From an uncultured Acidobacteriota bacterium (GTDB taxonomy: Bacteria > Acidobacteriota > Polarisedimenticolia > J045), in the NCBI GenBank assembly GCA_963702425.1, contig CAVPCQ010000037.1, forward strand, positions 64,001 through 128,000: a stretch of 64,000 nt of DNA. The letters run 5' to 3'. Below the pieces are notes generated by a model, which saw only the letters and a program-made list of their open reading frames with translations, did no database searches and was not told where the DNA came from. A program made the position numbers and the translations under genes. Of the stretch, positions 4,366-43,009 are shown piece by piece (position 1 is the first letter of the stretch; every line of letters starts with the position of its first letter).

Positions 4366-5967
4366 CTAGGGAACGGGCCCTCCCCCCCGACGGGCGCTGA
4401 AGAGCGTACACAGGGCCAGGCAGGCGCCGATGCCCCAGGGAATCAGCTGCCCGTGACGCGCGTACCAGGTCTCGCGGTTGCCGCCGACGGAAACGCCGGC
4501 GCGCAGCGTGGTGATCGTCGACAGCTCACTCCTCGCTGTCATGCGCCCGGACGAGTCGGTCACCGAGCAGATCCCGCTGTTCGCCGCGCGCACGACCGGA
4601 ATCTCGAGCGAGCGGGCGAACGACGCGACCATTCCGGCGTGCCACGCGGGGAAGATGCTCCGGCCCCACCAGGCATCGTTGGTGATGACGGCGAGGACGT
4701 TCGCTCCCGCATTGGCGTACGCCCTGCCAAGCTCGGGATACATGCCCTCGTAGCAGACCAGGACGCCGATCCGGGCATCGCCCACCCGGAACACGGTAGG
4801 CTCCGGCCCGCGCGAAAAATTACCGAGCAGGGTCAGGGGTGATCGGCGGCCCGGCTTGATCTCGCGCTTGGAAGGGTCCCAGCCCACGATCTCGGCGAAG
4901 GGGACGCCCTCGACGAAGGGCAGGAGCCGCTGCTTGCCGTACCACTTCTCGCTCATCCCCCCCCCGGGGAGGGCAAGTGCGGCGCCATTGTAGAGCGCGA
5001 TGATGCGCTCGCTCCGCACCTTGACGATTTCGCAGCCGTAGAGGATCGGCACGCCCGTCCTCGCCGCGAGCGCCTCGACCTCGGGATCCGACAACGGCTC
5101 GCCGTCCCGCCAGATCAGCGGCCCCGGTCGCGTCGTCTCCGGCCACAGCACGAGGTCGCTGTCCGCGGCCGCCTCGACCGTGAGGCGCTCGAGGCGCTGC
5201 CAGGTCGAAGGCCACTGGCTGCGATCGAGCTTGGCCTGGACCTCGATGAACGGCTGCACCATGCCGACGCGGAATCTCGCCTCCGACTGCGGCTGCTCCT
5301 CGCGGCGCAGGGCGTCCGTGAGCGGGATCGCCAACCAGACCGCGATCGCTGCGGCGAGCAGGGCGGCGGCGACCCGGTGCTCCCGCCGGCGTTCCCAGGC
5401 CTCGTCGAGGACGGCGCCGAGCGACCAGATCAGCAGCGACATGCCGTACGGGCCGGTCCAGGGCATCCACGACAACCAGGCCGGGTTGGTTCCAAAGGTG
5501 TACGCCAGCAGGTCGGCTGGGAAGGAGGCGTCGCTCGCGGTCTTCAGCATCTCCAGGAGCGGCCAGAGCAGCACGAGCCCGAGCCGGCGCGGGAGGCCGA
5601 AGCGGCGCTCGAGGAACAGTGCGCTCGTGAAGAGCGCGATCCAGTAGATGACGTAATACGCCACCGTCATGGGGTAGAGCGCGAAGGCGAGCCACGAGTA
5701 GCGCATCAGCACGAGCAGGAAGTGGGCCGCGATTCCCTGGTACGCGAGCGCGCCGATCGCTCCGAACGCCACGGCCTGCCGCATCGTCTGCATACCCCGC
5801 GCGCCGCGGAGGACGAGAAAGGCCGCGACCGGAAGGAGCGGAGCGAGTCCCGTCGGGATCCAGCAGGTTGCCAGCAGCGCGCCTCCCGCGGCGAGGGTCA
5901 GGGCGGATGCGCGCGGGAAGCTCTCGGCCGTTCCGGTGGGGCGGGTGGAGGCGTTCCCGCTACGCAC
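4366..5967 (-). CDS. lnt: Apolipoprotein N-acyltransferase
   Basis: N-terminal TM helices, LWPET, KQRLLPFVE, VCYEG, TNDAWWG, RAANSGIC; GTG at 5967 with GGAGG upstream. Confidence 0.92.
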   Translation of the reverse strand: MRSGNASTRPTGTAESFPRASALTLAAGGALLATCWIPTGLAPLLPVAAFLVLRGARGMQTMRQAVAFGAIGALAYQGIAAHFLLVLMRYSWLAFALYPMTVAYYVIYWIALFTSALFLERRFGLPRRLGLVLLWPLLEMLKTASDASFPADLLAYTFGTNPAWLSWMPWTGPYGMSLLIWSLGAVLDEAWERRREHRVAAALLAAAIAVWLAIPLTDALRREEQPQSEARFRVGMVQPFIEVQAKLDRSQWPSTWQRLERLTVEAAADSDLVLWPETTRPGPLIWRDGEPLSDPEVEALAARTGVPILYGCEIVKVRSERIIALYNGAALALPGGGMSEKWYGKQRLLPFVEGVPFAEIVGWDPSKREIKPGRRSPLTLLGNFSRGPEPTVFRVGDARIGVLVCYEGMYPELGRAYANAGANVLAVITNDAWWGRSIFPAWHAGMVASFARSLEIPVVRAANSGICSVTDSSGRMTARSELSTITTLRAGVSVGGNRETWYARHGQLIPWGIGACLALCTLFSARRGGGPVP

Positions 5968-6860: not shown

Positions 6861-8903
6861 ATGACCACGACCTCGTTCGACCGCGTCCGCTTCCAGGATC
6901 AGGTCCGCCAGGGAATCCCGTCCGCGTTGCCCGACCTGCCGCCGGACGAGCCGGGCGTCGACCACGCGCCCCCGCGGCGGCCCGAGCTGACCGCCTCCGA
7001 GCGCGCCCTGGCGCTCGCCAACGCACTGCGCTACGTCCCGCGCGCCTGGCACGTCGCGCTCGCGCCGGAGCTCGCGGAGGAGCTGCGCACCGACGGCCAC
7101 ATCACGATGCGCCGCTTCCGCCCCTCCTACCCGATGCGCGCCCGGCCGATCGACGACTACCCGGCACGCTCGCGGCAGGCCGCTGCGATCATGCTGATGA
7201 TCCAGAACAACCTCGATCCGCAGGTCGCCCAGTTCCCGCACGAGCTGGTGACCTACGGCGGAAACGGGGCGGTGTTCCAGAACTGGGCCCAGTACCTGCT
7301 GACGATGAGATACCTCTCCGAGATGAGCGACGAGCAGACGCTGGCCGTCTACTCGGGCCACCCGCTCGGGCTCTTTCCGTCGCACCCCGATGCGCCGCGC
7401 GTCGTGGTGACCAACGGGATGATGGTCCCGCACTACTCGACGCTGGCCGACTACGAACGGTTCAACGCGCTCGGCGTCACCTCCTACGGCCAGATGACGG
7501 CCGGCAGCTACATGTACATCGGCCCGCAGGGGATCGTGCACGGCACGGCGATCACGCTGCTCGGTGCGGGCCGGCTCTACCTCCATTCCGGCGAAGAGGG
7601 GCTGGCGGGCCGGGTCTTCGTCACCTCCGGTCTCGGCGGGATGAGCGGTGCACAGGCCAAGGCCGCGGTCATCGCGGGGGCGATCGGCGTGGTCGCCGAG
7701 GTCAACCCGGAGCCGCTCGCCAAGCGCCACCGCCAGGGCTGGCTGATGGAGGTCGAGACCGACCTCGACCAGCTGCTGCTCCGGATCGAGCGCGCCCGGA
7801 AGAACCGCGAGGCGGTCTCGATCGGCTACCTCGGCAACGTCGTCGACCTGTGGGAGCGGCTGGCGTCGGCCGGACTCGCCGTGGAGCTGGGCTCGGACCA
7901 GACTTCGCTCCATAACCCGTACGGCGGCGGCTACTACCCGGCCGGCCTCACCCTCGAGCAGTCGCGCGCGCTGATGAAGGACGACCCCGGCGCCTTCGCC
8001 GAGGCGGTCCACGCCTCGCTGCGCCGGCAGGTCGACGCGATCAACCGGATGGCGGAGCGCGGCACCTTCTTCTGGGACTACGGCAACGCCTTCCTGATCA
8101 CCGCGCGCCGCGCCGGGGCGGCGATCGACCGGCCCGACGGCTCGTTCCGCTACCCGTCGTACGTCGAAGACATCATGGGGCCGTTCTACTTCGACTACGG
8201 TTTCGGGCCATTCCGCTGGGTCTGCGCCTCGGGGCGCCCCGAGGACCTCGCACTGACCGACGCGATCGCGGCCGAGGTGCTGGCGCACCAGGCGCAGCAC
8301 GCCGCGGCCGAGAACCGCCAGCAGGTGGAGGACAACTTCGCCTGGATCCGGCAGGCCGCGCAGAACCGGCTCGTCGTCGGCTCGCAGGCCCGGATCCTCT
8401 ACGCCGACCGCGCCGGGCGCGTGGCGATCGCGCTGGCCTTCAACGCTGCGATCGAGAAGGGGCGCCTGGCCGGGCCGGTCGTGCTCGGGCGCGACCACCA
8501 CGACGTCTCGGGGACCGACTCGCCGTGGCGCGAAACCGCGAACATCCGGGACGGCTCGCGCTTCACGGCCGACATGGCGGTGCAGAACTTCGCCGGCGAT
8601 TCCTTCCGCGGTGCGACCTGGGTCAGCCTGCACAACGGCGGCGGCGTCGGCTGGGGCGAGGTGATCAACGGCGGCTTCGGGCTGCTGCTCGACGGCACCG
8701 CCGACGCCGCGCGGCGCGCCGCGTCGATGCTCTCGTGGGACGTGACGAACGGGGTCGCCCGCCGCGCCTGGGCCCGCAACGACGGCGCGCTTTTCGCGAT
8801 CCGCGAGGCAATGGAGGCCGACCCGCGGCTGGCGGTCACACTGCCCGAGATCGCCGCGCCGGAGTTGGTTGCGGACGCGCTGCGCGGCGCGGGACTGCTC
8901 TAG
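6861..8903 (+). CDS. hutU: Urocanate hydratase (long ~680-aa type)
   Basis: PHELVTYGGNG, YGQMTAGSYMYIGPQGIVHGT, GLGGMSGAQ, GRDHHDVSGTDSP, HNGGGVGWG. Confidence 0.96.
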   Translation: MTTTSFDRVRFQDQVRQGIPSALPDLPPDEPGVDHAPPRRPELTASERALALANALRYVPRAWHVALAPELAEELRTDGHITMRRFRPSYPMRARPIDDYPARSRQAAAIMLMIQNNLDPQVAQFPHELVTYGGNGAVFQNWAQYLLTMRYLSEMSDEQTLAVYSGHPLGLFPSHPDAPRVVVTNGMMVPHYSTLADYERFNALGVTSYGQMTAGSYMYIGPQGIVHGTAITLLGAGRLYLHSGEEGLAGRVFVTSGLGGMSGAQAKAAVIAGAIGVVAEVNPEPLAKRHRQGWLMEVETDLDQLLLRIERARKNREAVSIGYLGNVVDLWERLASAGLAVELGSDQTSLHNPYGGGYYPAGLTLEQSRALMKDDPGAFAEAVHASLRRQVDAINRMAERGTFFWDYGNAFLITARRAGAAIDRPDGSFRYPSYVEDIMGPFYFDYGFGPFRWVCASGRPEDLALTDAIAAEVLAHQAQHAAAENRQQVEDNFAWIRQAAQNRLVVGSQARILYADRAGRVAIALAFNAAIEKGRLAGPVVLGRDHHDVSGTDSPWRETANIRDGSRFTADMAVQNFAGDSFRGATWVSLHNGGGVGWGEVINGGFGLLLDGTADAARRAASMLSWDVTNGVARRAWARNDGALFAIREAMEADPRLAVTLPEIAAPELVADALRGAGLL

Positions 8904-17000: not shown

Positions 17001-18139
17001 GGCAGCGGCGTCAGCGCCGCCACGGCGGCGAGCGCGAGGCCGGTGAGTGCCGCGCCGGCCGGCGTGTCGACCAGCGGGGCGAGCGACGCCGAATGCGCGC
17101 CCCGTCCCTTCCGCGAGCCAGCTCGCGGTCCCGATGCCGCCGACCCGCTCGAGCGCGCCCGGGGCCGCGGCCAGCGCGAGGCGCGCGGCGATCACCGCCA
17201 GCGCCGCGCCGCGCCGCACGGCCAGCGCGAAGAGGGCCAGCACAAGCGCCGCCAGCGCGGCCGCGAGCTGCGCGCGGCGGTCGGCCAGCCGGGCTCGTTC
17301 CAGCGGCGCGGGCAGCACCTCGAGCGAGACGCGCGCGACGACCTGTCCCCCCGAGGCCATCAGCGGCACGAGCGACCAGTAGGGCGCGCTCTCGGCCGCC
17401 GGGCGCGTGGGCGCCACGGGAGCGCGCACCCCCTCGCCCCAGGCCTGCCAGCGCACGCTGGCATCGACACCGGGGCCGAGGTCACCGCCGAGCGCGCCGG
17501 CCGCCGGCTCGGAGGGGAGCGGCACCTCCGCCAGCAGCACGTGCGGTGCGCGCGCGGTGCGGCGCGCGACCACGAGCCGCAACACGAGGCCGCGCCGGAG
17601 CGCGATCACCGCCGGCGGCGTCGCGAGCTGGGCGCGGAGCGCCTCGCGCTCGTCCGGCGCGAGCCGCATGCTCGAACCGGACCAGGCGACGATCGTCGCC
17701 AGGTCCGGGCCGAAGAGGACGAGTCCCGCGTCGGGACCGAGCGCGGAGCGCTCGGCGTCGAGCCAGCCGGCGATCTCGGCGTCGAGGGGGCGGCTCCCTC
17801 CGCAGGGTGGCGTCGACCGCCGAGACCAGCGCCGCCCAGTTGCGCTCGACCCCCTGCACCGCGATGGCGAGGCGCTCGTAGGGAGCGCGACGGGGGGCGA
17901 TCTCCGACTGTCCGGCGAGGCCGGCGACCACGGCGAGCAGCGCGGCGAGGCGCAGCGCTCGGCCGCGTCCCCGGACCGCGGCGAGCGCCGCGGCGGCGAG
18001 CGCGACCGAGGCCAGCCACCAGCGCCCCGACCGCAGCCCCCGGCGCGCGGGAGAGCGCGGCCAGGAGGGCGGTCGACGCCAACGCCAGCGGGAGTCCGTC
18101 GAGGACGGCGAACGGGGCCGCGCGGCGCAGGTCGTTCAT
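14090..18139 (-). CDS. Large membrane sensor histidine kinase (NtrY-like HAMP-PAS-HisKA-HATPase); N-terminal part split over several frames
   Basis: MARRIAHEIKNPLTPI H-box, NLVLNA, DTGPGI, GSGLGL; upstream coding-like segments in ORFs starting at 18139, 17931, 18203 and 17023. Confidence 0.85.
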
Positions 18140-18199
18140 CGCGAGCGGATGATAGTGCGCGGCGCGTCCAGGGAGCTTCCCGTCCCGCGCCTCCTCCTC

Positions 18200-18435
18200 C
18201 CAACGCGGAACGGCCCGCCGCGAGGCGGGCCGTTCCGGGAACTCAAGGGGGGGTGGTCAGTCGGTCGGGAAAGGAGTCGTCTCGTCCAGGCGATGGGAAA
18301 TCCCGACAAGGGGCCGAGGGTTGGGTTCCACTTGCTCGGGGCAAAGTGGGCAACGGGCTTGGCACTGCGTCGGGTTCTTAGGGCAACGGGGTCGGTTCCC
18401 CTCGAACCCCCTGTCGGGTCTTTCCGCCTTCGCGC
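18200..18435 (-). ncRNA. Candidate sigma54-dependent structured sRNA (~230 nt)
   Basis: Lies between a sigma54 promoter and a hairpin; long stem GGAAA-GA-CCCGACAGGGGG-UUCGAGGG / CCCUCGG-CCCCUUGUCGGG-A-UUUCC; no credible ORF. Confidence 0.6.
18207..18236. terminator. GC-rich hairpin, probable terminator of the leftward sigma54 transcript
   Basis: GGAACGGCCCGCC-gcga-GGCGGGCCGTTCC, 13-bp perfect stem; no clear U-tract. Confidence 0.6.
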
Positions 18436-31694: not shown

Positions 31695-31734
31695 TGGGCC
31701 GTTAGCTCAGTCGGTAGAGCAGCGGACTTTTAAT
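31695..31734 (+). repeat. Left att site: copy of the 5' half of tRNA-Lys up to the anticodon loop
   Basis: TGGGCCGTTAGCTCAGTCGGTAGAGCAGCGGACTTTTAAT, identical to 42933-42972. Confidence 0.95.
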
Positions 31735-31749
31735 GCATTTGACACGTCG

Positions 31750-31787
31750 GCGGCAACTTGGCTCACCTCAGCAAGTTGCCGCTTTTT
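31750..31787 (+). terminator. Intrinsic terminator just inside the left att site
   Basis: GCGGCAACTTG...CAAGTTGCCGC-TTTTT. Confidence 0.75.
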
Positions 31788-31801
31788 CTATCAGATAGCC
31801 C

Positions 31802-31869
31802 GTCACCGAGTGTCACCGAGTGTCACGAAACGCACCCCGTTTCTGGAAAACGTGACACGATTGGACACG
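31802..31869. repeat. Putative integrase arm-type sites
   Basis: GTCACCGAGT tandem copies; 23-bp CGTTTCTGGAAAACGTGACACGA at 31838-31860 repeated at 42881-42903, each followed by NNGGACACG. Confidence 0.7.
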
Positions 31870-32559
31870 ACCGAGAGCAGCGGATTCGATCCGCGGACGC
31901 GACCTAGGCCGTATGCATATGGCCTGAAAAGGACGGCCCGACCGTGGACAGCGGCCGGGCCCTAACAGCGCGATCGGGCGAAAGGACGATTCCACGCGTT
32001 GACAACGATATCAGATCGGGAGCACTCTGCGTGCGATCGAACATGCCGTGGACAGCGGCAGAAAGGACGATCCCCATGGATGACCACCCCAGACTTGAAT
32101 CAGAAGCTGAGGCCCTTGCACGGTTCCGCGCGGCTTTCGGCACCCCCGAGGAGATGTTCGCGCTAGGGCCTGGCGTCGGTCTGCGCGATCATGGACGCGG
32201 AGGAGCGGGGCGAGACCACCGCGTCACCGTCGGAGTTCCTGGCAAGGCACCCGGAAGTCGTGCGCGTGATCGCCCGCAAGGCCCGCGAGGCCGCGGCTGA
32301 GTTCCACGCGCGACGAGTGCCGGTCCGTCCCCCGATAGTGCGCCGGATGATTCGCTGCGCTCCCCGCCGGCTAGCTGTCAGGAGTCACCGAAGGGCCGCC
32401 CGGGCGCTCCAGAAGACCGGCACCGACGACGACGGCCCCGAACCTGACCCAGCCGCTCGGCTGGGGTTCTTTCCTGACAACCTGTCCCCGGTAGCCGCGG
32501 CCGTCGTCGTCGTCTATCTGGCCGCGTCCCTGGTGGGCTTCGCTGTCGGCTCCGCGCTG

Positions 32560-32746
32560 GCCTGGTGTTGCAGTGACGGCAGCCTGTTGAACCTGGCGAA
32601 GCCGCGGAGCGGCTGCGGTGTTAGGTCTCCTGGTACGCAAGCTGTCGCGGGTCGGGCAGCTAGAAACGGTACTGATAGGGCGCCTGCCGCGCTACACAGA
32701 AGCCGCGCTAGACGACTACGTACAGCGCAGCACGAAGCGCGTCTAG
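32560..32746 (+). pseudogene. Excisionase-like HTH remnant
   Basis: Reconstructed LLNL.EAAERLRC*VS.VRKLSRVGQLETVLIGRLPRYTEAALDDYVQR across two frameshifts and a TAG. Confidence 0.65.
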
Positions 32747-32975
32747 ACCTGGCAGTCGCGCGGCGCAGAGGTGCGAGGTGAGCGCGGCCGCGTCTAGTCC
32801 ACGCGCCCCCGCCCCGTCTTCCAGCTGGTCCACTCTTCCAGCGGGCAGCAGATCTAGGAGCTGCGCGTGGCAGATGCGAGGCTAGCTGGCGTAGAGGCAG
32901 CGCTGGCAGGCGGCGATCTGGCTCTCGCGCAACGGCTGGTTCGCTAGGCGCTAGACGACTGGCAGCGGTGTCGCG

Positions 32976-34392
32976 ATGACGGCACTCGCCGCGGACAGCG
33001 TGCACGAAGTCGGCAGGGCGGTACTGGCTAGCGTACTGGTAGGCGAGCGAGCGCGGCTGGACAAGATCTAGAGTAGCACTTCTCGCGCGAGCTGGCAGCA
33101 GTCTGGTAGACAGACGTAACCTGCAACGGGCAGACGGGGAAATAGACAAGTGGCTCTGATGACCTGCGCGAACCTGAACGAGGAATAAGTCGCCGCCCTG
33201 GTAGGCGCAGACGAGCGCCACCTGATACTGTCCGCGGCGGCGGGCGTGGAGAAGCTGGCAGAGTACTTGCGCAGAAGAGAGGTAGCTAGGCTGGCAGAGA
33301 CGTTCCGCGAGCGATTCCTAGACGGCGACGGAGAAGAGACGTGGACGCGCTGCTGGCCGCTCACGATGCCGCCGTCCGCCGGCCGGACACGCTCGCGCTC
33401 GTCTCACCGGCAGAGCTGGCGCCGCCACGAGCCGGTACAGTGGATCATACCGCACTACGTCGCCACGGGCAGACGTGACGCTACTCGCCGGCGACGCGGG
33501 CAGCGGGAAGACATGGCTCACAGAGAACTGGGCTCTAGAGGTAGCTCTGCGCGGTGAGAAGGTACTGGAGTGGCAGGCAGAGCACGAGCTCCGGCTGGCG
33601 TCTCTGCGGGTACACAAGCTGCTAGGCGGCGCTGGCGCCGCTACGGAGGCAGTCGCTTAGTGGCGGTTACTGATACAGCCTGACCTCGACTCTCGACAGA
33701 TGCCGGCCTCGCGGCTCTCCGCGCTCTGATAGAACGCGAGCGCTCCGCTCTGGTAGTCTTCGATTCTCTGGTATGCGTCATGGGCAGCGCTAACGAGGAC
33801 AAGGCAGAGGAGGTCTCGGCGTTCTTAGGCAGCGTGTTCGTTCAGATCGCTAGGGACTACGGCTGCGGCGTCCTGGTACTGCACCACTTGCGGAAGCAGT
33901 CCGGGTCAGACGATAGCGGCAGCCTCCAGCACAAGGTCCGCGGCTCCTCCGATCTGCGCGCCGCCGTCGGGTACGTCCTGGTACTAGACCGCAACGGCGA
34001 GACGAGCACCTCTGGCAGACGAAATGCCGCTGGCAGCCAGAACAGCCGCTCGTCGGAATCCAGATCGAGGAGTGGACCACGGCGTCCGGGTCTCTGTCAA
34101 GGGCGCTGCAGACGCAGAGGTACTGATACTGAACAGCCTCGCAGATGCCGGACGGGCAGGGATGCTGCGCACGGAGCTGCGAGACCTGCTGGCAGAGCAC
34201 GGCGTCCGGGATACAGATAAGGCAGCGACGAGGACTCTCGGCTCTCTGAAGCGTAAGCGTCGCGTTGCGTGCACGGATACGGCAAGGCCGGGACAGCTAC
34301 TGGCTCCGCGACCACGCTCCGAAAGAAGCGCTGGAGGCGTCCGAGTGAGCTCAGAATACGGACACAACACGGACACTTTCACGGACAGATAA
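32976..34392 (+). pseudogene. AAA/RepA-like replicative helicase remnant
   Basis: Walker A GDAGSGKT, Walker B LVVFDSL, VLHHLRK...VRGSSDL; internal stops and frameshifts; start uncertain. Confidence 0.75.
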
Positions 34393-34460
34393 GAATACGG
34401 ACAGCTACTAGGCATAGCCGTATACACGCACGGACAGAGTACGGACAGATAAAAGGACAT
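34358..34460 (+). repeat. Iteron-like cluster (putative origin of replication)
   Basis: Six ACGGACA copies at 34358, 34369, 34381, 34397, 34430 and 34441. Confidence 0.7.
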
Positions 34461-34771
34461 ACGCTCGGAGGCGGGAGGCTCGCTGCCGCTCGCGCCGTCC
34501 CGCCACCGGGCAGACGTTATGTCGGGCGAATAGTGATCGTCTACAGGCACCGCGAGGCAGGGCGCATGACAGTCCCTTTCAATGCAGAAACACCCAATAG
34601 ATATAACGGTTCAGTGTAGATTTGGGTGGGCGCGGGCTTCTACATCGCCGCCCCTGAAAAAACGAACCTGTCCGCGGCCGCTGTTTTTTCTGAACCTGTC
34701 CGCGAGCAACGGCAGACGACACATTTGCACGCGCGGGTAAGTAAGGATACAGCTCTGAGAGGAGGCACCAC

Positions 34772-35190
34772 ATGAGCACGAGAGGTCAGATCGCGAAGTC
34801 TCACGCCGCGGCTCGCTGCGGCCACTACGGGCTCGCCAGCAAGGTAGCGCAGGTGTCGCAGAGCGATAGGCAGTTGCAGACGACGGCGCAGTCCTGGCTG
34901 CCAGAGGAGGCTCGGGCGATCTACCTCGCAGCGCTCGAGGCGCTGGTAGGTAGGGCAGGTGTAGAGGCGGTAGAGGTACTGTGCGGGTACGCGCTGGCGG
35001 TGGCAGAGCTGCGCCGGCAGACGGCGGCGGCGCGACAGAACAGGGCGGCGATCAGGGCAGAGCACGCGTGGTGCTGGCCTACGCGACGGCGCTCGGGCTA
35101 AGCTCTGCCGGCAGGGCTAGTCTACGAGAGCTGAAACAGGTTGATCAGATGACAGAGCGCGAGGCGACGATCGCCTCGCTGATTAGATGA
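34772..35190 (+). pseudogene. Terminase small subunit-like remnant
   Basis: GGAGG RBS; LPEEARAIY...LCGYALAVAE... then frameshift to LGLSSAGRASL, resembling P27-type LGLTPxxRxxL. Confidence 0.55.
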
Positions 35191-35700
35191 AAGGAGACGG
35201 AAATGCAGATAGGGTTGAATGTGACAGAGAGCCGCAGTACGGTGCGCCACACGGAGAAGACGCACTGATTCAAAGACGCCGCTCTGAGCGCGGCTGTACG
35301 ACTGGGCGCAGATTCGCTGTGCCGCTGTGGCAGGCCGGACAAGCCGGGTCACGAACAATGCCTAGTCGCGCTCGCGACGCTGGCGATAACGCACCTCAAG
35401 CTGTTGCGGGGGGTGCTGGCGGCCGGCGACGCGGACGCGGTGCGGCGAGACTACACAGAGACGGCGACGGTACTGAAGCTCGAGGCGGAGCTGCTAGAGG
35501 AGTTGGTGCGGACGCGGGTGAACGCGCCGCAGGGCTAGACCGCGCAGAAGGTGACGAAAGAGATTCGCCGTCTCGACGACGGTAGTTTCATCATAGAGGA
35601 ACGGACCGCGTGAACCTGACCACGAACACCCAACGAGGGGCGTCTGCGAAATCTCTGTCGGCCCCGACACCGCGCCAGAGGGCGCACGAAGGGACAGACC

Positions 35701-36968
35701 ATGAGTGACGCACGAATCAGCGAGCTGGTACAGGAAGAGGTAGCGGCCTACTGGAGCAAGCAGAAGTACAGGAGGCCGGACGAGGTGAGCGAGGCGGTGG
35801 CAGCGTAGAAGCGGGTAGTGACGCGGCGGGCTACCGGGGCAGGGCGGGGTCGGCGAAGATGGAGGCGATCTTCCCGGCGCTAGAATCCGGGATGACAGGT
35901 AGGCCGCTGCCGGTGAAGCCGCTGGCGCAGCGCGGGGCGGAGGCGGCCCGGCACGCCGGGGACTTCTGGAGTGACCTGCGAGCGGCGGCGCTGGACCATC
36001 TGTCCGGTCAGAGGGTAGCGCAGGGGCTGCTGGCGGCGGCCACGGGGCTCGGTCAGCAGGTTCAGAGCGAGGGCGGCTACCTGACGCCCCCGCAGCAGGC
36101 GTCCGCGATCTGGGACGCGCTGAACAGCAGTGTCAACGCGCTGTCGACGCTGTGCGACAACCACACCGTCACCGGCGAGTCGCTGAGCCTGCCGGCGAAC
36201 GCGGAGACGAGCCGAGTGCAAGGCAGCCTGTACGGCGGTCTGACGACCTACTGGGTAAACGAGGCAGACCAGATCACGGCGAGCAAGCAGAAGTTCCGGC
36301 TGCTGAAGCTAGAGCCGCAAGAGCTGATCGCTCTGTGCTACGTGAAGGACAAGGTACTGAACAACAGCGGCGAGGCGCTGGGCGCGTACCTGGAAGTCGC
36401 GGCAGGGATAGCGCTCGGGCACAGGCTAGACGCGGCGATAGCGGGAGGGATAGGGACAGGCCAGCGGCTAGGGCTCCTCAACGCGGCGTACACGGTGTCG
36501 GTAGCTAAGGAAGGCGGTCAGGCGGCGGCAACGGTAGTGCCGCAGAACGTCGCGAAGATGGTAGCGCGGCTGCATCACGGGGCGCACGGGACGGCGCGGT
36601 GGATCATGCACCCGACGGTGTACGCGCAGCTGCTACAGTTGGTGACCACGACGGCGGTCGGGAAGGGCGGGTACAACCTGTTAGATCCGGCGACGCGGAC
36701 GCTGGCTGGCTTCCCGCTCACGGTGACAGACGTGCTGCCGGTGCTCGGGAAGGTAGGAGACCTGATACTGTGGGATCAGACGAGCTACGCGGTCGGGAAG
36801 CGCGGGACTGAGCAGGCGGTGAGCATCCACGTCCGCTTCGACTACGGGGAGAGCGCCTACCGCTTCAAGCTCTCAGTAGACGGCCAGCAGTGGCTAGACT
36901 ACGAGATCACGCCGGCGGTGGGGTAAGACACTCTGAGCACGGCAGTGACGCTGGCGACGAGGACCTAG
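35701..36968 (+). pseudogene. HK97-type major capsid protein, disrupted
   Basis: SEGGYL, YWVNEADQITASK, SIHVRFDYGESAYRF; ORF 35859-36926 continues after TAA as DTLSTAVTLATRT; N-terminus has a TAG and a frameshift. Confidence 0.85.
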
Positions 36969-36971
36969 GCC

Positions 36972-37451
36972 ATGTTAGCGAAGCAGAAGAAACGAGAAGT
37001 GATAGTGCGCACGTCGCGCGGGACGCTGGCAGAGCAGTTGGCAGCGCTCCGCGCGGCGCGGCGAGGCAGTCTGGCTGGGGTAGAGCAGAAGCGGCACGCG
37101 GCGGCGGTAGAGGCGGCGCGTCTGATGGACGCGTCTTTCCTCGCGATGCAGAAGCTCAGAGCGGTAGATTCAGAGGCGCACGGGGTAGAGTACGGTCTCG
37201 ACCTGGAGGAGCACGAGCTCTCGTGCAGGCTGGCAGACACGGCGTCGCCGGTGATAGACGAGTATCTCGAAGCGCTCGACGCGTGGTGGCAGAAGCACCG
37301 CCACGAAGTGCCGGAGGCAGGGCCGGACGAGACAGACGCAGAGGCGAGGGCGGCGCACCGCCGGCGGGTAGCACGGTTCCACGAGGTACGGCGCGAGGTG
37401 CTCGAGCTGCGCGTCGCCGAAGTTCCAGACCTGCATGACCGGCTCGGATAG
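36972..37451 (+). CDS. Hypothetical element protein
   Basis: 159-aa ORF starting 3 nt after the reconstructed capsid stop. Confidence 0.55.
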   Translation: MLAKQKKREVIVRTSRGTLAEQLAALRAARRGSLAGVEQKRHAAAVEAARLMDASFLAMQKLRAVDSEAHGVEYGLDLEEHELSCRLADTASPVIDEYLEALDAWWQKHRHEVPEAGPDETDAEARAAHRRRVARFHEVRREVLELRVAEVPDLHDRLG

Positions 37452-37647
37452 TTCGCGCGGGAGATCGGTCTCGCGTGGATGCCGCCGCTGCCGGTGGCCT
37501 GACGAGGGGGCGGTAGTGACAGCGCGGGCCGCTCTGCTGGGTACCGGTCTCCTGGTAGAGCCGGTCCCGGTTGTACGACCCGCGCGGATTCTCTCCGGGG
37601 GACCTGGTCGCATCGCGCGGCAGGGCCCCGCAGTTACGGAGGTGTTC

Positions 37648-37863
37648 ATGCGTGACGTGAGCGAGGCGCAGCGCCGGACGGCCGAACGGGCGGCGGCGCG
37701 GATCTTGGCGGACCTGCCGGGGATCATCGCGGCCGGCCGCGCCATGGGCGGCGACGTGGGCGCGGTGGCGGCGCTGGCGCTGCTGTTCGGGGAGTTGAGC
37801 AGGCGCGGCGTGCTGCCGGCGGAGCTACGAGACCCGGGACCGACGCCGGAGGTGCTGGCGTGA
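37648..37863 (+). CDS. Small hypothetical element protein
   Basis: GGAGG RBS, ATG at 37648, stop overlaps the next GTG. Confidence 0.5.
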   Translation: MRDVSEAQRRTAERAAARILADLPGIIAAGRAMGGDVGAVAALALLFGELSRRGVLPAELRDPGPTPEVLA

Positions 37864-38389
37864 GCACGCTCGACAAGGTTCTCAGGGTGCAAGAGTTGTA
37901 CCGGACCGGGGTGTCCCGCTTCACTCTGCCGTCGCTGGACCGGCCGTTGAGCGACGCCGACCCGGACGGGCTGGCGCTGATCGACGTACTGCGGTCGCCC
38001 GACCCGTCACGGAGGCCGAGGCCGTAGACGCCGACCTGCGGCGCCGGCTGGCCGACCGGATGATGGCGCGGCTCGACGATCGGCAGCGGGCAGTGCTGTT
38101 CGCCCGGTTCAGCGGCTGGACGCTGGAAGATACCGGACGGTACTGCGGGCTGTAGCGCGAGCGAGTGCGCCAAGTCGAGCGCGAAGCCGGCGCGAAGTTG
38201 GCGGCCGAGGACTGGCCGCCCCCGGAGCCGATGCCGCTCGGCCGGCCGCGTAGCGAGCACCCCGAGGCCGACCCGCGGCACGCCCGGATGCGCGAGCTGT
38301 GGGATCGGCTGCGCAGCCTTCGCTGCTATCGAACGAACGCGAGCGGCTGGAGGCCGAGCACCGGGAGCTGGCCGCGGCGCTCCGGGTAG
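37860..38389 (+). pseudogene. sigma70 region 3.2/4-only protein, disrupted
   Basis: SLDRPLSDADPDGLALIDVL...LDDRQRAVLFARF.GWTLEDTGRYCGL*RERVRQVE; frameshift near 38009, TAG at 38153. Confidence 0.75.
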
Positions 38390-38604
38390 AGGGACCGCGC
38401 CGGTGACGAACCTCCGCAGGATCTACGCGCTGCCCCGCAGCCTGCGGTGCGGGATCGACGCGATCGCTTGGAGAGAACGGCACGCATTCCCGATCCCGCC
38501 CGAGCGCGTCGAGCTGACGGCCCCTATCGGCAGCGAGCCGGCCGAGATTCTGGGCGGCATCGCCGAACGGATGGCGCAATGACGGCCGCCGCTCGGAGCG
38601 GCTG

Positions 38605-39563
38605 TCAATACGGTTCCTCTTCCTTCTTCTCAGGTTTTTCCAGGCGCAGCTTCACTTTCAAGGCAGCGCACTCGGTGGCATTGAAACCGACTTTTTCAAG
38701 GAACCTCGACTCACCCATCGCATCCGCTTTGACTAGCAGTTCCTCCGGTGTTTCAGATTCCGTAATAACCATAGCGCCGGCAGTTCGAAACTCCAGCAAT
38801 GGACTCAATGCGAGCACATCTAAGCGCTTTCTGGCCTTCTTGAGGTCTTAGAACGGATGCGTCGCGGAACAGACGTCGCCCAAGTCAACTTCATCTGTCG
38901 CGGAACCGTATTTGAGGAACTCCGGTGTATAGAGCACTGTCGGGGTTGACGCTCTATACGGCAATTCGATATTCGTGGTCAGATACTCTGCTCGTGTGAT
39001 AGCGCGGACTCGTTCTAGAATCTCCTCTGCGATTTCCCTAAGATCTCGTTGCGATTTCCCACCCCCTGCTTTCGGAAGTTCCGCAGCGATCGCACTGAGA
39101 CTCTTCTCCAGTTCAGGCCACCAGACACGAGCAATGTGTCTTATCACTTCCTCGGGCTTCCTGGATTCATCTGGCTGTGCCCTGTTTAGGGCGAGTAACA
39201 GGTCGCGGGTTCCATCCTTGTCCGCATCTACTGCCTGGAACTGCCCGAGAGGCGCGGACAGGTCCGCCTTGTTGATGCCGATTAGGTACGGACAAACAAG
39301 CGAACCGGCGAGGTCTCTGGCGATCGCGCCGGCCTCGAAGTGCACCCATGGCGCGTCCTTGTTCTCCGGCGTGAGACATACAACCGCGATCCTAGAACTC
39401 GCGAGTCGATCTGCGAGCGCTACCGCTCATCGGCTGCTCGCAGAAATATCACTGGAAGAAACCGTCTCAAGTTTAGCATCGCTCGTTCGAGCTATTTCGC
39501 GAGCGCTTGTGCCACTAACTTGCTTCGGTTGCAGGACCACGAGATGAAGACGCTCACGCTCAT
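38605..39563 (-). pseudogene. TIR-domain protein, disrupted
   Basis: MSVSVFISWS..RSK.VAQAL; CLTPENKDAPWVHFEAGAIA; PLGQFQA; several stops; 38605-38817 is in frame after TAA at 38848. Confidence 0.8.
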
Positions 39564-41167
39564 TCGCACACCTCGCAACGTCGTAACGGAGCGATCGGGG
39601 CTGTGACACACACTTGTGCAAGGGGTTGGGCTCTGGCTCGCACGTCACGTCGCTGGCTTGTCTGCAAGGGAGATGCTTGCGAAATGAGGGTTGGCGGTCA
39701 AGGGGTCGCGGGGAACGTCTGTACAGACATGTATAGAGCTCTGGCGCTGCTCTGACTGGGTTGGGTATGGCGCTGATCTCGCTGGTTGGTTGGGGCGCTG
39801 CTCTACAGTTGTCTCGGGGGTGGCGTCTAGAACGGGTGAGGTACGCGGTTTATAGAGCGACATAGATCTGGACGGAGCGAACGCATTATTCTTTGTGCGC
39901 TCACTTACAGAAAGGAACATCAGTCTCTTCTGCTCGCCTCTTTGTTCTCTCTATTGCGCTGAGAATGTAATAGACAGATAGCTCAAGCACCACAAGGGTG
40001 ACGTAGCAACAGACGGCAAAGGAATGTCGATATAAGAATGTAGTGGCTTGGCTCATGATCTAGAGAGCGAGGTAGGGAAAAAATAGAAACATAAAGGTAC
40101 GAATGAGTATCGTACACGGGACTAGCACGATCATGCGAAGCACATACGAAGTTTTCTCGGAGCGGCTCATGTCAGGCCAGAACTTCATGATAGTGTAAAT
40201 GGTGCGCTGGCAAGATGGGCATCGGACAATAGGCGGGATAATCACTCTTTGGCGTAGAAGGACGTCTCGAGGACGTGGTTACAGTGGGGACACGTGTAGT
40301 TCGAGTTCGTATCTGATCTTCTCTAGGCAACTAGACAGGAACGTTCTACAAAACTATTTGTGAGCAGGGCTATGCTCTTTCGCTCGTCACTCGCTGGAGA
40401 GGTATGCTCGCGCTGTCAGCTCACTAAGACGGTGACGGGGTTATCGGACATCGCAGCGTCTACTAGACGGTGCATTTTTTGATATTGATAGCGTTAGGCT
40501 TCGTAGCTGCTTGATCTCGCAAGGATGGACGATTGCAATAGCTAATAGAAGAAGAGGGCCATCTAGAACAGCATCTCAATAGAAAACAATAGTAGTCTGA
40601 GAGCGGTGCTTACAGAAGATAGAGATTGCACAACAAGTGATCAGCGAGGTTTGGAACGCAAACATCAGGGAGTTGCTTTCTTGGGTGCGTCGTATAGGAG
40701 TAGAAGAACATATACGGCGCTGCTGCGACTCTGTATGCTCACATCGTGGCGGCTCAACTGGGATTGATGCTGGGGTGTCGGTCAGAGAGATAAAAACGGC
40801 TCAGACAGAGACGACAATCAACACGAATTTGTAGGCGATTTCTAAGAAGATAAGGACGAGCGCAGTCTCTCACGCTCGCGGGCTGCCGCATACTGGGATG
40901 CGGACCCAGGAGGTATGACGGCACATGGCTAGAGTAAGGGCTGGGACGCTGCTGAGTAGGAAGGCGATTACAACGAAGATTAAGTGCACTTCGCTTGCAG
41001 GAAAAGTGAGATTGCTGATATCGGCACGGACAAGAATGCAGCTGCGAGGATCACTACAGGATGTTCGCGACGAGGGGGGGAATACTAGGGGGATATAGAT
41101 TGGGGACGCGTCTTATGACTATACACGTTCAGCTTATGATGTGCTACGCATGTCGAACAGACAATAC

Positions 41168-41617
41168 TCAGCTCGATGATGCGGGTTCGTAGATGTTGGT
41201 GCTGCACAGTGACATCTCAGGGCTCCCATCTCTTGCGCAGGTTCTCGTGCTGCTGACGACTCGCGTTATCTCGACGGTTTTCAAACTCTTGGTCTGAGGC
41301 GCGTTCTGGCAGTTCGGGCAGGAACGATAGCTGTTCGTCTTGACAATCAGGTGAACGAGTTTCCGCTGCGTGTAGAGACAGTTGGAACAGAAGGGCTCTC
41401 GGTTGTCGTTAGTACAGATGGCGTTGTCTTCGAATAGAGTGGTCGCGCGAATCTCAAGGTGCTCTTTGAGTGTCAGATTCTCGGCCTCCAATTCGGCGAT
41501 CTTCTTCTGTGCGTCGCTCAGATCGTCCACGACCACAAGGAGCGCCTGTTTGGGTTCGAGGTTGGCAATCCCCTTACTGACCTCGAGGATCGTCTTTATC
41601 GAGTCAATGAGCTCTAT
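41168..41617 (-). pseudogene. Coiled-coil plus CxxC...CxxC phage-associated protein; start codon reads ATA
   Basis: GGAGG-ccac-ATA in frame with ORF 41168-41536; PFCSNC...CPNC. Confidence 0.55.
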
Positions 41618-41810
41618 GTGGCCTCCCGAATGTTAGACCGCATGGTACGATCTTACTCGAAGCGGGACCGCCGAGCGTTGATAGCGCGCGACGGCCCCTA
41701 ACGCAAGGCGTGAAAGGCCACGCGATGCGCTGTCCCGATTGTAACCAACTTCACCGCAAACGGGGACCGCTTGCGCCGTCGTGCGCTGCCCGCGCGCGGA
41801 GGGCGTCTTA

Positions 41811-42932
41811 ATGTCCAAGCGAAAGGTGCGGCGGTACGGAAGCGGCGCGGTGCAGCAACTCCCGTCCGGCTCGTGGCGGGCGCGGTTGCGCGCGGCCGGG
41901 CAGACCGTCGGCCGGACGTTTGCGACCCGCGAAAAGGCCGAAGAGTGGCTTCGGCAGTCGTCGCCGGGGGTCGCGGTCGCGAACGTGTTCGGGCTTCCGG
42001 ACCGGGGCGAGAGGCCAGACTGCACCTTCGCCGAGGCGGCCGAGTTGCTGCCGGCGGCGTGGGCGGCGCGCGGTCGGACGGCGGACAGTATCCGCGGTTA
42101 CCGCTCGCACCTGACGGCGGCGATGAAGGACTGGGGGCCGCGGCGGATCGCCGACACCCGACCGGCAGCAGTTTCACGTCTGGATCGCCGCCGAGCAGAA
42201 TGCCGGCCGGGCCAACCGAACGATCCTGCAACGGCTGGTGCAGTTGTCACAGTGCGATGAAGGCCGCCGTTGACGCCGGCTGGCTTCCCGGCGGTGCCCT
42301 GCGCGGTTCCGCGGCCCCGCGTCGTGGCGAAGTCGGAGCGCACCTGCACCCCGGAGCCGCAGTTCGAGAAGCTGCTCAAGGCCGCCACGAAGACGAAGGA
42401 CCCCCGGCACCTGGCGCTGCTGCTGCTGGCCGCGGACGCCGGGCTGCGCCGCGGAGAAATCGGCCGCGTGCTCGGCCGGCACGTCCGGCTCGGGGGCGAC
42501 GGGATCACGTCGTGGGGCACGATCCACGTCGCGGTGATCTCGGAGACCAGCCGCACCAAGTCGGGGAAGGGGCGGACGGTCCCGATCCTCTCGGCCCGGC
42601 TGGCGGACGCGCTCCGGGCCGTCTTCCCGCCAGCAGACGAGACGGTCCTGCGGCTGACGGCGCACGGCGTCCGGCTGCTGTCCGATGATCTCTGGACGGC
42701 GGCCAAGCTAGGGCCCGGCTCCCGGCTCCACGAGCTGCGGCACCGATGGGTGACCCGGCTGCTGGACGCCGGGGTCCCGGCGGTCACGGTCCAGTCGTGG
42801 GCCGGGCACGCGAGCGTGACCACGACGGAGAAGTATCATCACGGGGCCGCGGAACCGACCGCGGTAGCCGCGGCCGCGGTCGTTTCTGGAAAACGTGACA
42901 CGAAAGGACACGCGGTCAAGCTAAGTCGTTGA
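41811..42932 (+). pseudogene. Tyrosine recombinase/integrase with frameshifts at ~42160-42290
   Basis: YGSGAV.QLPSGSWRAR arm-binding domain; GLRRGE, TKSGKGR, HELRH, WAGHAS..TTEKY catalytic motifs. Confidence 0.88.
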
Positions 42933-42933
42933 T

Positions 42934-43009
42934 GGGCCGTTAGCTCAGTCGGTAGAGCAGCGGACTTTTAATCCGCCGGTCGCTGGTTCGAGTCCAGCAC
43001 GGCTCACCA
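42934..43009 (+). tRNA. tRNA-Lys(UUU), overlapping the right att site
   Basis: GGGCCGTTAGCTCAG...GCGGA-CTTTTAA-TCCGC...GGTTCGAGTCC...CTCACCA, 76 nt. Confidence 0.97.

Follow-up and report, generated by a model that had tools for sequence, protein, structure and literature searches.

One-strand C>A hypermutation in part of a decayed tRNA-Lys island of an uncultured Acidobacteriota bacterium

How does one strand of a bacterial mobile element come to carry A at positions where its relatives carry C? The question is raised by a decayed island (31695-42972) integrated at a tRNA-Lys gene in the window analysed here, a 64,000-nt stretch of DNA from an uncultured Acidobacteriota bacterium (G000:C37:64001-128000; positions are those of the window unless a contig is named). 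The genome assembly, G000, comprises 5.1 Mb in 42 contigs with ~71% GC, and is 91% complete and 5.85% contaminated. A first-pass annotation made from the letters alone had proposed C>A/G>T hypermutation throughout 32560-41617. This held for a tract of ~5 kb, 32480-37450, in which about one-fifth of the + strand cytosines have become A, but not beyond it: the TAG at 38153 lies outside the tract, and 38.5-41.6 kb is low-GC cargo. With slightly less than even confidence, we read the tract as a real, strand-coordinated cluster of lesion-bypass mutations; it is one of at least two, probably four, kilobase-scale one-strand tracts of change to A in this genome.

Direction, strand and sequence context of the changes

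A syntenic and intact relative of the island is present in a congener (G001:C128) and a remoter one in G017, from the same family. Direction was counted on the blastn matches of window positions 32100-38500 to the G001 element, read from G001 to the window. C>A differences outnumbered A>C by 99 to 28 (binomial p = 2e-10), with 28 G>T against 22 T>G, 100 C>G against 58 G>C, and symmetric transitions (C>T 36 against T>C 35; G>A 40 against A>G 38). The best-conserved match, of 515 bp, had 38 C>A against 2 A>C (p ~1e-9) and against 6 G>T (p ~1e-6). When the capsid gene was polarised in a three-taxon test, 25 C>A and 5 A>C fell to the window lineage, compared to 11 and 15 in the G001 lineage (Fisher p 0.002). 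Capsid columns in which at least 80% of 16 homologs agree deviate in the window at 34 places; 22 of these are one-step changes, most often C>A (6) and never G>T. Base composition (A/C/G/T) is 20.4/28.3/36.8/14.5% in the tract and 14.2/35.3/37.3/13.1% in the G001 element, a shift of +6.2 points for A, -7.0 for C, -0.5 for G and +1.4 for T.

The effect on coding was followed in the small-terminase-like gene, aligned by codon to its G001 counterpart. C>A changes fell on first, second and third codon positions 8, 11 and 12 times, compared to 2, 1 and 9 for C>G, and the other classes lay mostly at third positions; the even spread of C>A indicates that these changes were unfiltered by selection. The G001 copy has 16 Pro codons, 15 of which are altered in the window (10 to Gln or His); at two prolines compared by eye, G017 agrees with G001 while the window has Gln or Glu. 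From the direction counts, the three-taxon test and the codon positions we conclude that the changes arose in the window lineage, lie on the + strand and passed no filter of selection. The capsid codons that the first-pass annotation had singled out (CAG at 36063, 36288 and 36888, AAG at 36345) indeed stand where the 16 homologs mostly have Pro or Thr, and the TAA at 36924 precedes a conserved C-terminus. Also present as described are the in-frame TAG codons at 38153 (GL*RERVRQ), 32622 (RLRC*VS), 33658, 35536 and 35806, the 12 CTAG within 32650-33325 (the first CTAG of the window being at 4366), and the GTA-G, ATA-G and GCA-G codon pairs, visible in 36972-37451. Relatives, which might have shared such codons, have different ones.

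The changes depended on sequence context. By trinucleotide, C>A affected 30 of 98 CCG, 12 of 45 TCG, 13 of 101 GCG and 5 of 54 ACG, and between 0 and ~23% of the remaining trinucleotides, for which counts were small. CCGA was near saturation, with C>A at 16 of 17 sites (p 4e-10 against the rest); TCGG (5/10) and CCGG (8/20) were also affected, and GCCG (1/24), ACGC (0/13) and CCTG (0/11) were low. Between the G001 element and the tract, the density of CCGA drops tenfold (14.0 and 1.4 per kb), while CAGA rises from 2.8 to 14.1, TAGA from 0.34 to 6.4, TAGG from 0.34 to 4.0 and CTAG from 0.52 to 5.4; the density of GCGA is nearly the same in both. At the palindrome TCGA, the tract has 6.4 TAGA per kb and only 2.0 TCTA per kb, and the strand bias therefore does not derive from the motif. 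The unusual spectrum that had been suspected, dominated by C>A in CpG context and lacking an excess of transitions, was thus confirmed, and on one strand.

Genome-wide, CCGA occurs at 8.78 per kb and CAGA at 1.94 per kb. The median 1-kb window holds 19 YCGA and 2 YAGA, and among 1-kb windows above 60% GC none in the genome outside the tract combines at most 7 YCGA with at least 14 YAGA. The 2-kb piece 32001-34000, with 18 CTAG, is the highest of 5,035 such windows in a genome averaging 0.2 CTAG per kb. Scans for YAG/CTR and TAG/CTA were unspecific, being confounded by CAG/CTG and TAC codons.

Near saturation of a four-nucleotide motif, in a more than 20-fold contrast to other contexts, together with a strand bias that persists at the palindrome, favours an enzyme that would attack incoming or mobile single-stranded DNA at 5'-YCGA-3' on one strand, or at 5'-TCGR-3' on the other, modifying or removing a base and killing the element, much as APOBEC3G does with retroviral cDNA or RIP (repeat-induced point mutation) with fungal DNA. 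We set the probability of such an attack low. No candidate enzyme was found, and we know of no enzyme class that converts C to A directly. DarT (PF14487) was not found in G000, a result of little weight because the same search matched none of 14 control genomes; the guanine-specific DarT1, according to PMC11543638, acts without a strict motif.

Limits of the tract within the island

The island and its surroundings comprise the following features, given with their strand and the evidence for them.

31695-31734, + strand: left attachment site (attL), a partial copy of tRNA-Lys (first 40 nt), 100% direct repeat of 42933-42972
31838-31869, + strand: 32-nt repeat with a second copy at 42881-42912 (94% direct repeat), a possible integrase arm site
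32170-32465, + strand: small gene related to an open reading frame (ORF) of the G001 element, not hypermutated (tblastn, 40% identity, E 9e-5)
32592-32790, + strand: excisionase-like remnant with in-frame TAG at 32622 followed by a frame change (frame translations)
33475-34220, + strand: primase/helicase (AAA_25) remnants split over frames (PF13481 pieces in two frames, both below the cut-off)
34772-35190, + strand: small-terminase-like gene remnant lacking 1 nt near 35083 (aligned by codon with the intact gene of G001)
35859-36968, + strand: HK97-type major capsid remnant with TAA at 36924, its N-terminal part missing or garbled (PF05065, E 8e-24; alignments)
36972-37451, + strand: open 159-codon ORF rich in GTA, ATA and GCA codons, in which the tract fades
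37932-38385, + strand: sigma-70 region-4-like pseudogene with two 1-nt deletions and TAG at 38153, without C>A hypermutation (PF04545)
38848-39459, - strand: remnant of a TIR-domain gene, interrupted by an in-frame TAG and lying in cargo of lower GC (PF13676, E 0.002, below the cut-off; phrog_13899, E 1.8e-33)
39600-41160, no strand assigned: stretch of 49-56% GC with no recognisable gene (composition)
41781-42932, + strand: tyrosine integrase, broken by an in-frame TGA (codon 160) and garbled in its middle part (PF00589)
42934-43009, + strand: tRNA-Lys(UUU), the first 40 nt of which form the right attachment site, attR (ARAGORN)

The signal sets in near 32480, directly after a terminator-like hairpin at 32448-32465, and has faded by ~37450; the tract covers less than half of the element. 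The small gene before it has a YAG fraction at background level, the sigma-like pseudogene adjoining it has 10 CCGA and no CAGA, and the broken integrase still has a third-position GC of 0.88-0.98. Breakage itself spans the excisionase, primase, terminase, capsid, sigma-like, TIR and integrase genes of the island.

Breakage of so many genes, and the general GC-to-AT pressure on unselected DNA, are arguments for ordinary neutral decay of the island after its genes had become pseudogenes, in a host with an unusual mutation spectrum, for instance from weak 8-oxoguanine repair; the first-pass annotation had likewise offered an unusual spectrum revealed in unselected DNA. However, the signature is missing from neighbouring pseudogenes of the island, and the sharp limits of the tract contradict such decay, as do a strand bias of ~4-6 to 1 and the absence of a transition excess. 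Deficiency of mutM/mutY, the GO system, yields G:C to T:A transversions genome-wide and on both strands, whereas here the effect is local and both genes, which the annotation had marked for checking, are present as open frames: mutY at 284.2 bits (cut-off 286.5; 412 aa) and fpg at 224.1 bits, above its cut-off. Nor do core genes share the spectrum. The genes rpoB and rpoC are single open frames, and over 8,471 aligned sites they have 80 G000-specific changes, compared to 139 specific to genome G004, and no gaps in G000; the G000-specific changes include 31 C>G, 17 G>C, 12 C>T, 10 G>A and 3 C>A, with no T>A and no G>T. The spectrum between strain duplicates in the assembly is ordinary as well. 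We therefore consider neutral decay very improbable.

A different reading of the stops, in which TAG would be reassigned to an amino acid in the element, takes its appeal from the frame 32618-33478, which has nine TAG and no other stop. It is contradicted by the shifted frames of three remnants (terminase, excisionase and primase) and by the TAA in the capsid, and also by the replacement of Pro by Gln at conserved sites, by the derivation of CTAG from CTCG through the same C>A change, and by the tRNA genes at 28-46 kb, where only tRNA-Lys and no suppressor was found. We give it almost no credence.

As judged from its gene content, the island looks like a dead, capsid-encoding element of satellite type. 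Capsid-encoding phage satellites and phage-inducible chromosomal islands are small islands at tRNA sites that have a capsid gene of their own but lack a full set of virion genes, and that helper phages mobilise. Like them, the island is of ~11 kb, sits at a tRNA gene between direct repeats and has integrase, excisionase, primase, small-terminase-like and HK97 capsid genes; it differs in its high-GC genome, in that all core genes are broken and in that no helper phage is known. Portal, large terminase and tail genes were not recognised in the frames scanned with Pfam and PHROG, in a setting of decayed genes. The primase/helicase remnants also match phrog_906 and phrog_239. We take 32592-32790 to be a putative excisionase from a motif, the remnant having no Pfam match and a 74% DNA match to a second island on contig C34; 34772-35190 is presumed to be a small terminase from its position and likeness. 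The capsid frame stays open across 355 codons despite its substitutions. Between 38.3 and 41.8 kb no homolog of the G001 element proteins was found, and a six-frame Pfam and PHROG search of 39600-41160 gave no match.

Searches for closer relatives of the element gave none. A blastn search of a phage database with 32500-38500 found no match; the capsid protein had no closer relative in the genome contigs, an alignment of the capsid comprised 28 loci (best 48% identity), and a family-level search found the capsid in only 4 of 23 genomes (best 51% identity). P0002 matched 39 loci in metagenome contigs, all at no more than 52% identity over at least 85 residues, and two short C-terminal pieces (~45 residues) at 62-65%. 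Exact DNA patterns had no match in the genome contigs and the metagenome contigs searched. No second copy of the tract was found in its own genome, which has only three short matches, all to the C34 island.

Other one-strand tracts in the genome

The first-pass annotation had described the signal as restricted to the element, which does not hold. A second one-strand tract of change to A lies at ~41780-42560 of contig C11 (L015 ~7780-8560) in a chromosomal gene for a surface protein; the locus is syntenic in three congeners, and the tract truncates the gene, which has TIG/PD40 domains (nearest database relative 956 aa). Changes were polarised with the G004 ortholog (92% identical over a 4.2-kb region) and G001 as outgroup. 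Ninety-nine are specific to G000 (C>A 35, T>A 30, G>A 11, C>T 8, C>G 7, others 8) and 12 to G004, with 17 bases deleted in G000 and none in G004. Altered sites comprise 48 of 211 C and 38 of 136 T, these pyrimidines going to A, but only 11 of 298 and 4 of 112 of the two purines. The tract shows no preference for YCGA.

Two C-poor stretches are further candidates. On contig C39, 850 bp at 86110-86960 (L017 6110-6960) have only 8-12% C and ~33% G; they come after the conserved end of one unit in a ~3.5-kb tandem array that is presumably Rhs-like, a label taken from motifs. The stretch could not be aligned to the paralogous repeat unit or to G004 except for its last 90 nt, which, by eye, differ from G004 by C>A and C>T. 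On contig C31, an 833-bp insertion at 17551-18384 (L112 2552-3384), missing in G004, G003 and G002, holds what appears by eye to be a nucleotidyltransferase/HEPN-like pair; C thins toward its right end, where we counted 2 C in the last ~125 nt. A scan for base skew returned 19 tracts, and the four TAG-rich ones outside rRNA operons are all on the + strand of their contigs, with flanks of zero to positive GC skew.

That all four tracts share the contig + strand within one metagenome-style assembly speaks for a local consensus artefact, in which patches covered by few single-molecule reads of one orientation would carry strand- and context-dependent miscalls and deletions. Such patches could arise at strain-variable insertions of low coverage, with miscalls possibly at modified bases. 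The sites affected are likely to vary among strains (a satellite island, DNA following an Rhs-like core, an 833-bp insertion and a surface-protein gene), and the mutated alleles occur in no independent assembly. The indels of the C11 tract, 17 against none, are all deletions. Stretches of 10-15 kb at the ends of contigs occur twice, with 97-98% identity (for example C16:244135-259346/C41; C7/C33; C6/C42), so that the bin mixes at least two strains; the duplicates differ mainly, and symmetrically, by transitions and C<->G exchanges. Strand- and motif-specific miscalls at modified bases are a known feature of nanopore data, as PMC11610603 describes. In that paper, however, the miscalls are mainly C-to-T and G-to-A and fall on every copy of a motif, whereas here the change is C>A and restricted to tracts, and CCGA is intact genome-wide. 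Also against an artefact, rpoBC is gapless with an ordinary spectrum, and over 1,065 nt the capsid is free of indels even though ~7% of its bases differ directionally. Since the genome has one copy each of the island and of the C11 locus, polishing would be expected to succeed at both, and the two best-studied tracts differ in their error context, as would be unlikely from one chemistry. We consider an artefact, a possibility that the first-pass annotation had raised as well, the main rival of lesion bypass and only somewhat less likely.

In line with enzymatic attack, inserted or exchangeable modules hold three of the four tracts, and genes were destroyed. Targeted inactivation of foreign DNA, the other explanation offered at first, is nevertheless weakened: only part of the element is covered, the C34 island is spared, and the C11 tract, without the motif preference, lies in a syntenic chromosomal gene.

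Lesion bypass on exposed single strands as a candidate origin

Lesion bypass, the reading that we favour, would proceed as follows. One strand in each tract would be transiently single-stranded or gapped, and purines of the template strand (the - strand here) would be damaged or lost, in the window tract the guanines in 5'-TCGR-3'. During DNA synthesis, A would be placed opposite the lesions, or the lesions would be skipped. Insertion of A opposite non-instructive lesions is known as the A-rule. The occasion may have been entry of single-stranded DNA with recombination, or a long gap or resected end, and the resulting changes would have been fixed without selection acting. Direction, strand, context and limits of the changes are observed, whereas the lesion, the exposed strand and the occasion belong to the proposal. 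The pattern of the C11 tract, in which pyrimidines went to A and bases were skipped while purines were spared, is what the A-rule predicts when the template has lost purines or carries non-instructive ones. Single-stranded entry with recombination, or gaps, would likewise explain the strand coordination, the sharp internal limits, and why exchangeable modules and one chromosomal allele were affected. A bioRxiv 2026 preprint (PMC13277962) provides a precedent: conjugative single-stranded DNA in E. coli is highly sensitive to mutagens, and potassium bromate causes mainly C-to-A changes on the transferred strand together with single-base deletions.

Several observations weigh against this explanation. 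The mutated alleles are found in one assembly only, the capsid and the truncated C11 protein being each a single sequence on a single contig, and the common + strand orientation of the four candidate tracts could point to an assembly cause. Conversion of ~90% at one four-nucleotide motif is far above usual chemical damage, one event in a living cell would hardly change 20-25% of the target bases, and 8-oxoguanine ought to be kept in check where fpg and mutY are functional. The window tract has C>A in YCG and few indels, whereas in the C11 tract any C or T goes to A and deletions are many; with such unlike contexts, the causes may differ. The flanks of the C11 tract are also enriched in G000-specific over G004-specific changes (15 against 1 and 16 against 5). 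A link to transcription was considered and rejected, as the changes lie on the coding strand in the window but on the template strand of the C11 gene.

Clusters of mutations from damage to single-stranded DNA, such as those in E. coli conjugative DNA in the preprint (PMC13277962), resemble the tracts in affecting one strand, in sharp kilobase limits and in showing no filter of selection. They differ in that they arise in the laboratory or in somatic cells and comprise between a few and some tens of mutations, whereas here there are hundreds, fixed in a natural genome, with a four-nucleotide motif near saturated. Kataegis-like clusters, which are strand-coordinated, are known from yeast and cancers. 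APOBEC3G acting on retroviral cDNA, and RIP in fungi, deaminate cytosine and yield C>T or G>A; APOBEC acts on one strand, and RIP needs duplicated DNA and affects both strands. The likeness lies in dense, motif-dependent change that fills a mobile element with stops and, as with APOBEC, in the single strand; the differences are the lack of any transition excess here and, from RIP, that the tract is single-copy and on one strand. Unlike with a diversity-generating retroelement, whose variable sites differ strongly from one relative to the next, the 99 changed sites of the C11 tract are identical in G004 and G001; no search for a reverse transcriptase was made. The literature searched, judged from titles and abstracts, yielded no described bacterial counterpart, and such a signature fits no described bacterial process.

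If real, the tracts would be a natural, fixed case of strand-coordinated hypermutation in a bacterial genome, combining transversions to A with single-base deletions and bringing one motif near saturation, and would make mutagenesis of single-stranded DNA during entry, at gaps and upon resection, as well as a possible base-excision defence, open to testing. A bolder proposal, which we think unlikely, is that this lineage has a strand-specific, sequence-selective activity that damages or excises bases of single-stranded DNA at 5'-TCGR-3' (YCGA>YAGA) and so shifts kilobase-long tracts of DNA that is incoming or exchangeable towards A. Were it true, bacteria would have an equivalent of APOBEC-type restriction based on transversions, and the satellite island, the Rhs tip, the toxin-antitoxin insertion and the recombined chromosomal gene would carry its entry scars. 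If the tracts are an artefact, they would serve as a warning that directed miscalls in patches of kilobase size can go unnoticed in metagenome assemblies that are otherwise clean, and can mimic pseudogenes and hypermutation.

Some further observations concern the island and its genome. The copies of the 32-nt repeat (31838-31869 and 42881-42912) flank both attachment-site copies, the right one overlapping the last codons of the integrase, and the repeat may be an arm-type binding site, as predicted from its placement. An intact 122-aa ORF with a weak zinc-ribbon match lies at 41168-41536 (- strand) in cargo of 50-58% GC. The second island (G000:C34:48535-54634; L013) is different, sharing with that of the window the att-proximal region (83% identity), the excisionase segment and the sigma-like gene, and is not hypermutated. 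Windows that are high in CAGA/TCTG on C16, C30, C25, C28, C9 and C10 were discarded as tracts, being normal genes, and windows rich in CTAG at 280 kb of C11 and 57 kb of C20 proved to be rRNA operons. These two rRNA operons of the bin (C11:282096-285093 and C20:55433-58433) are only ~80% identical over 3 kb, and one of them may come from a contaminant.

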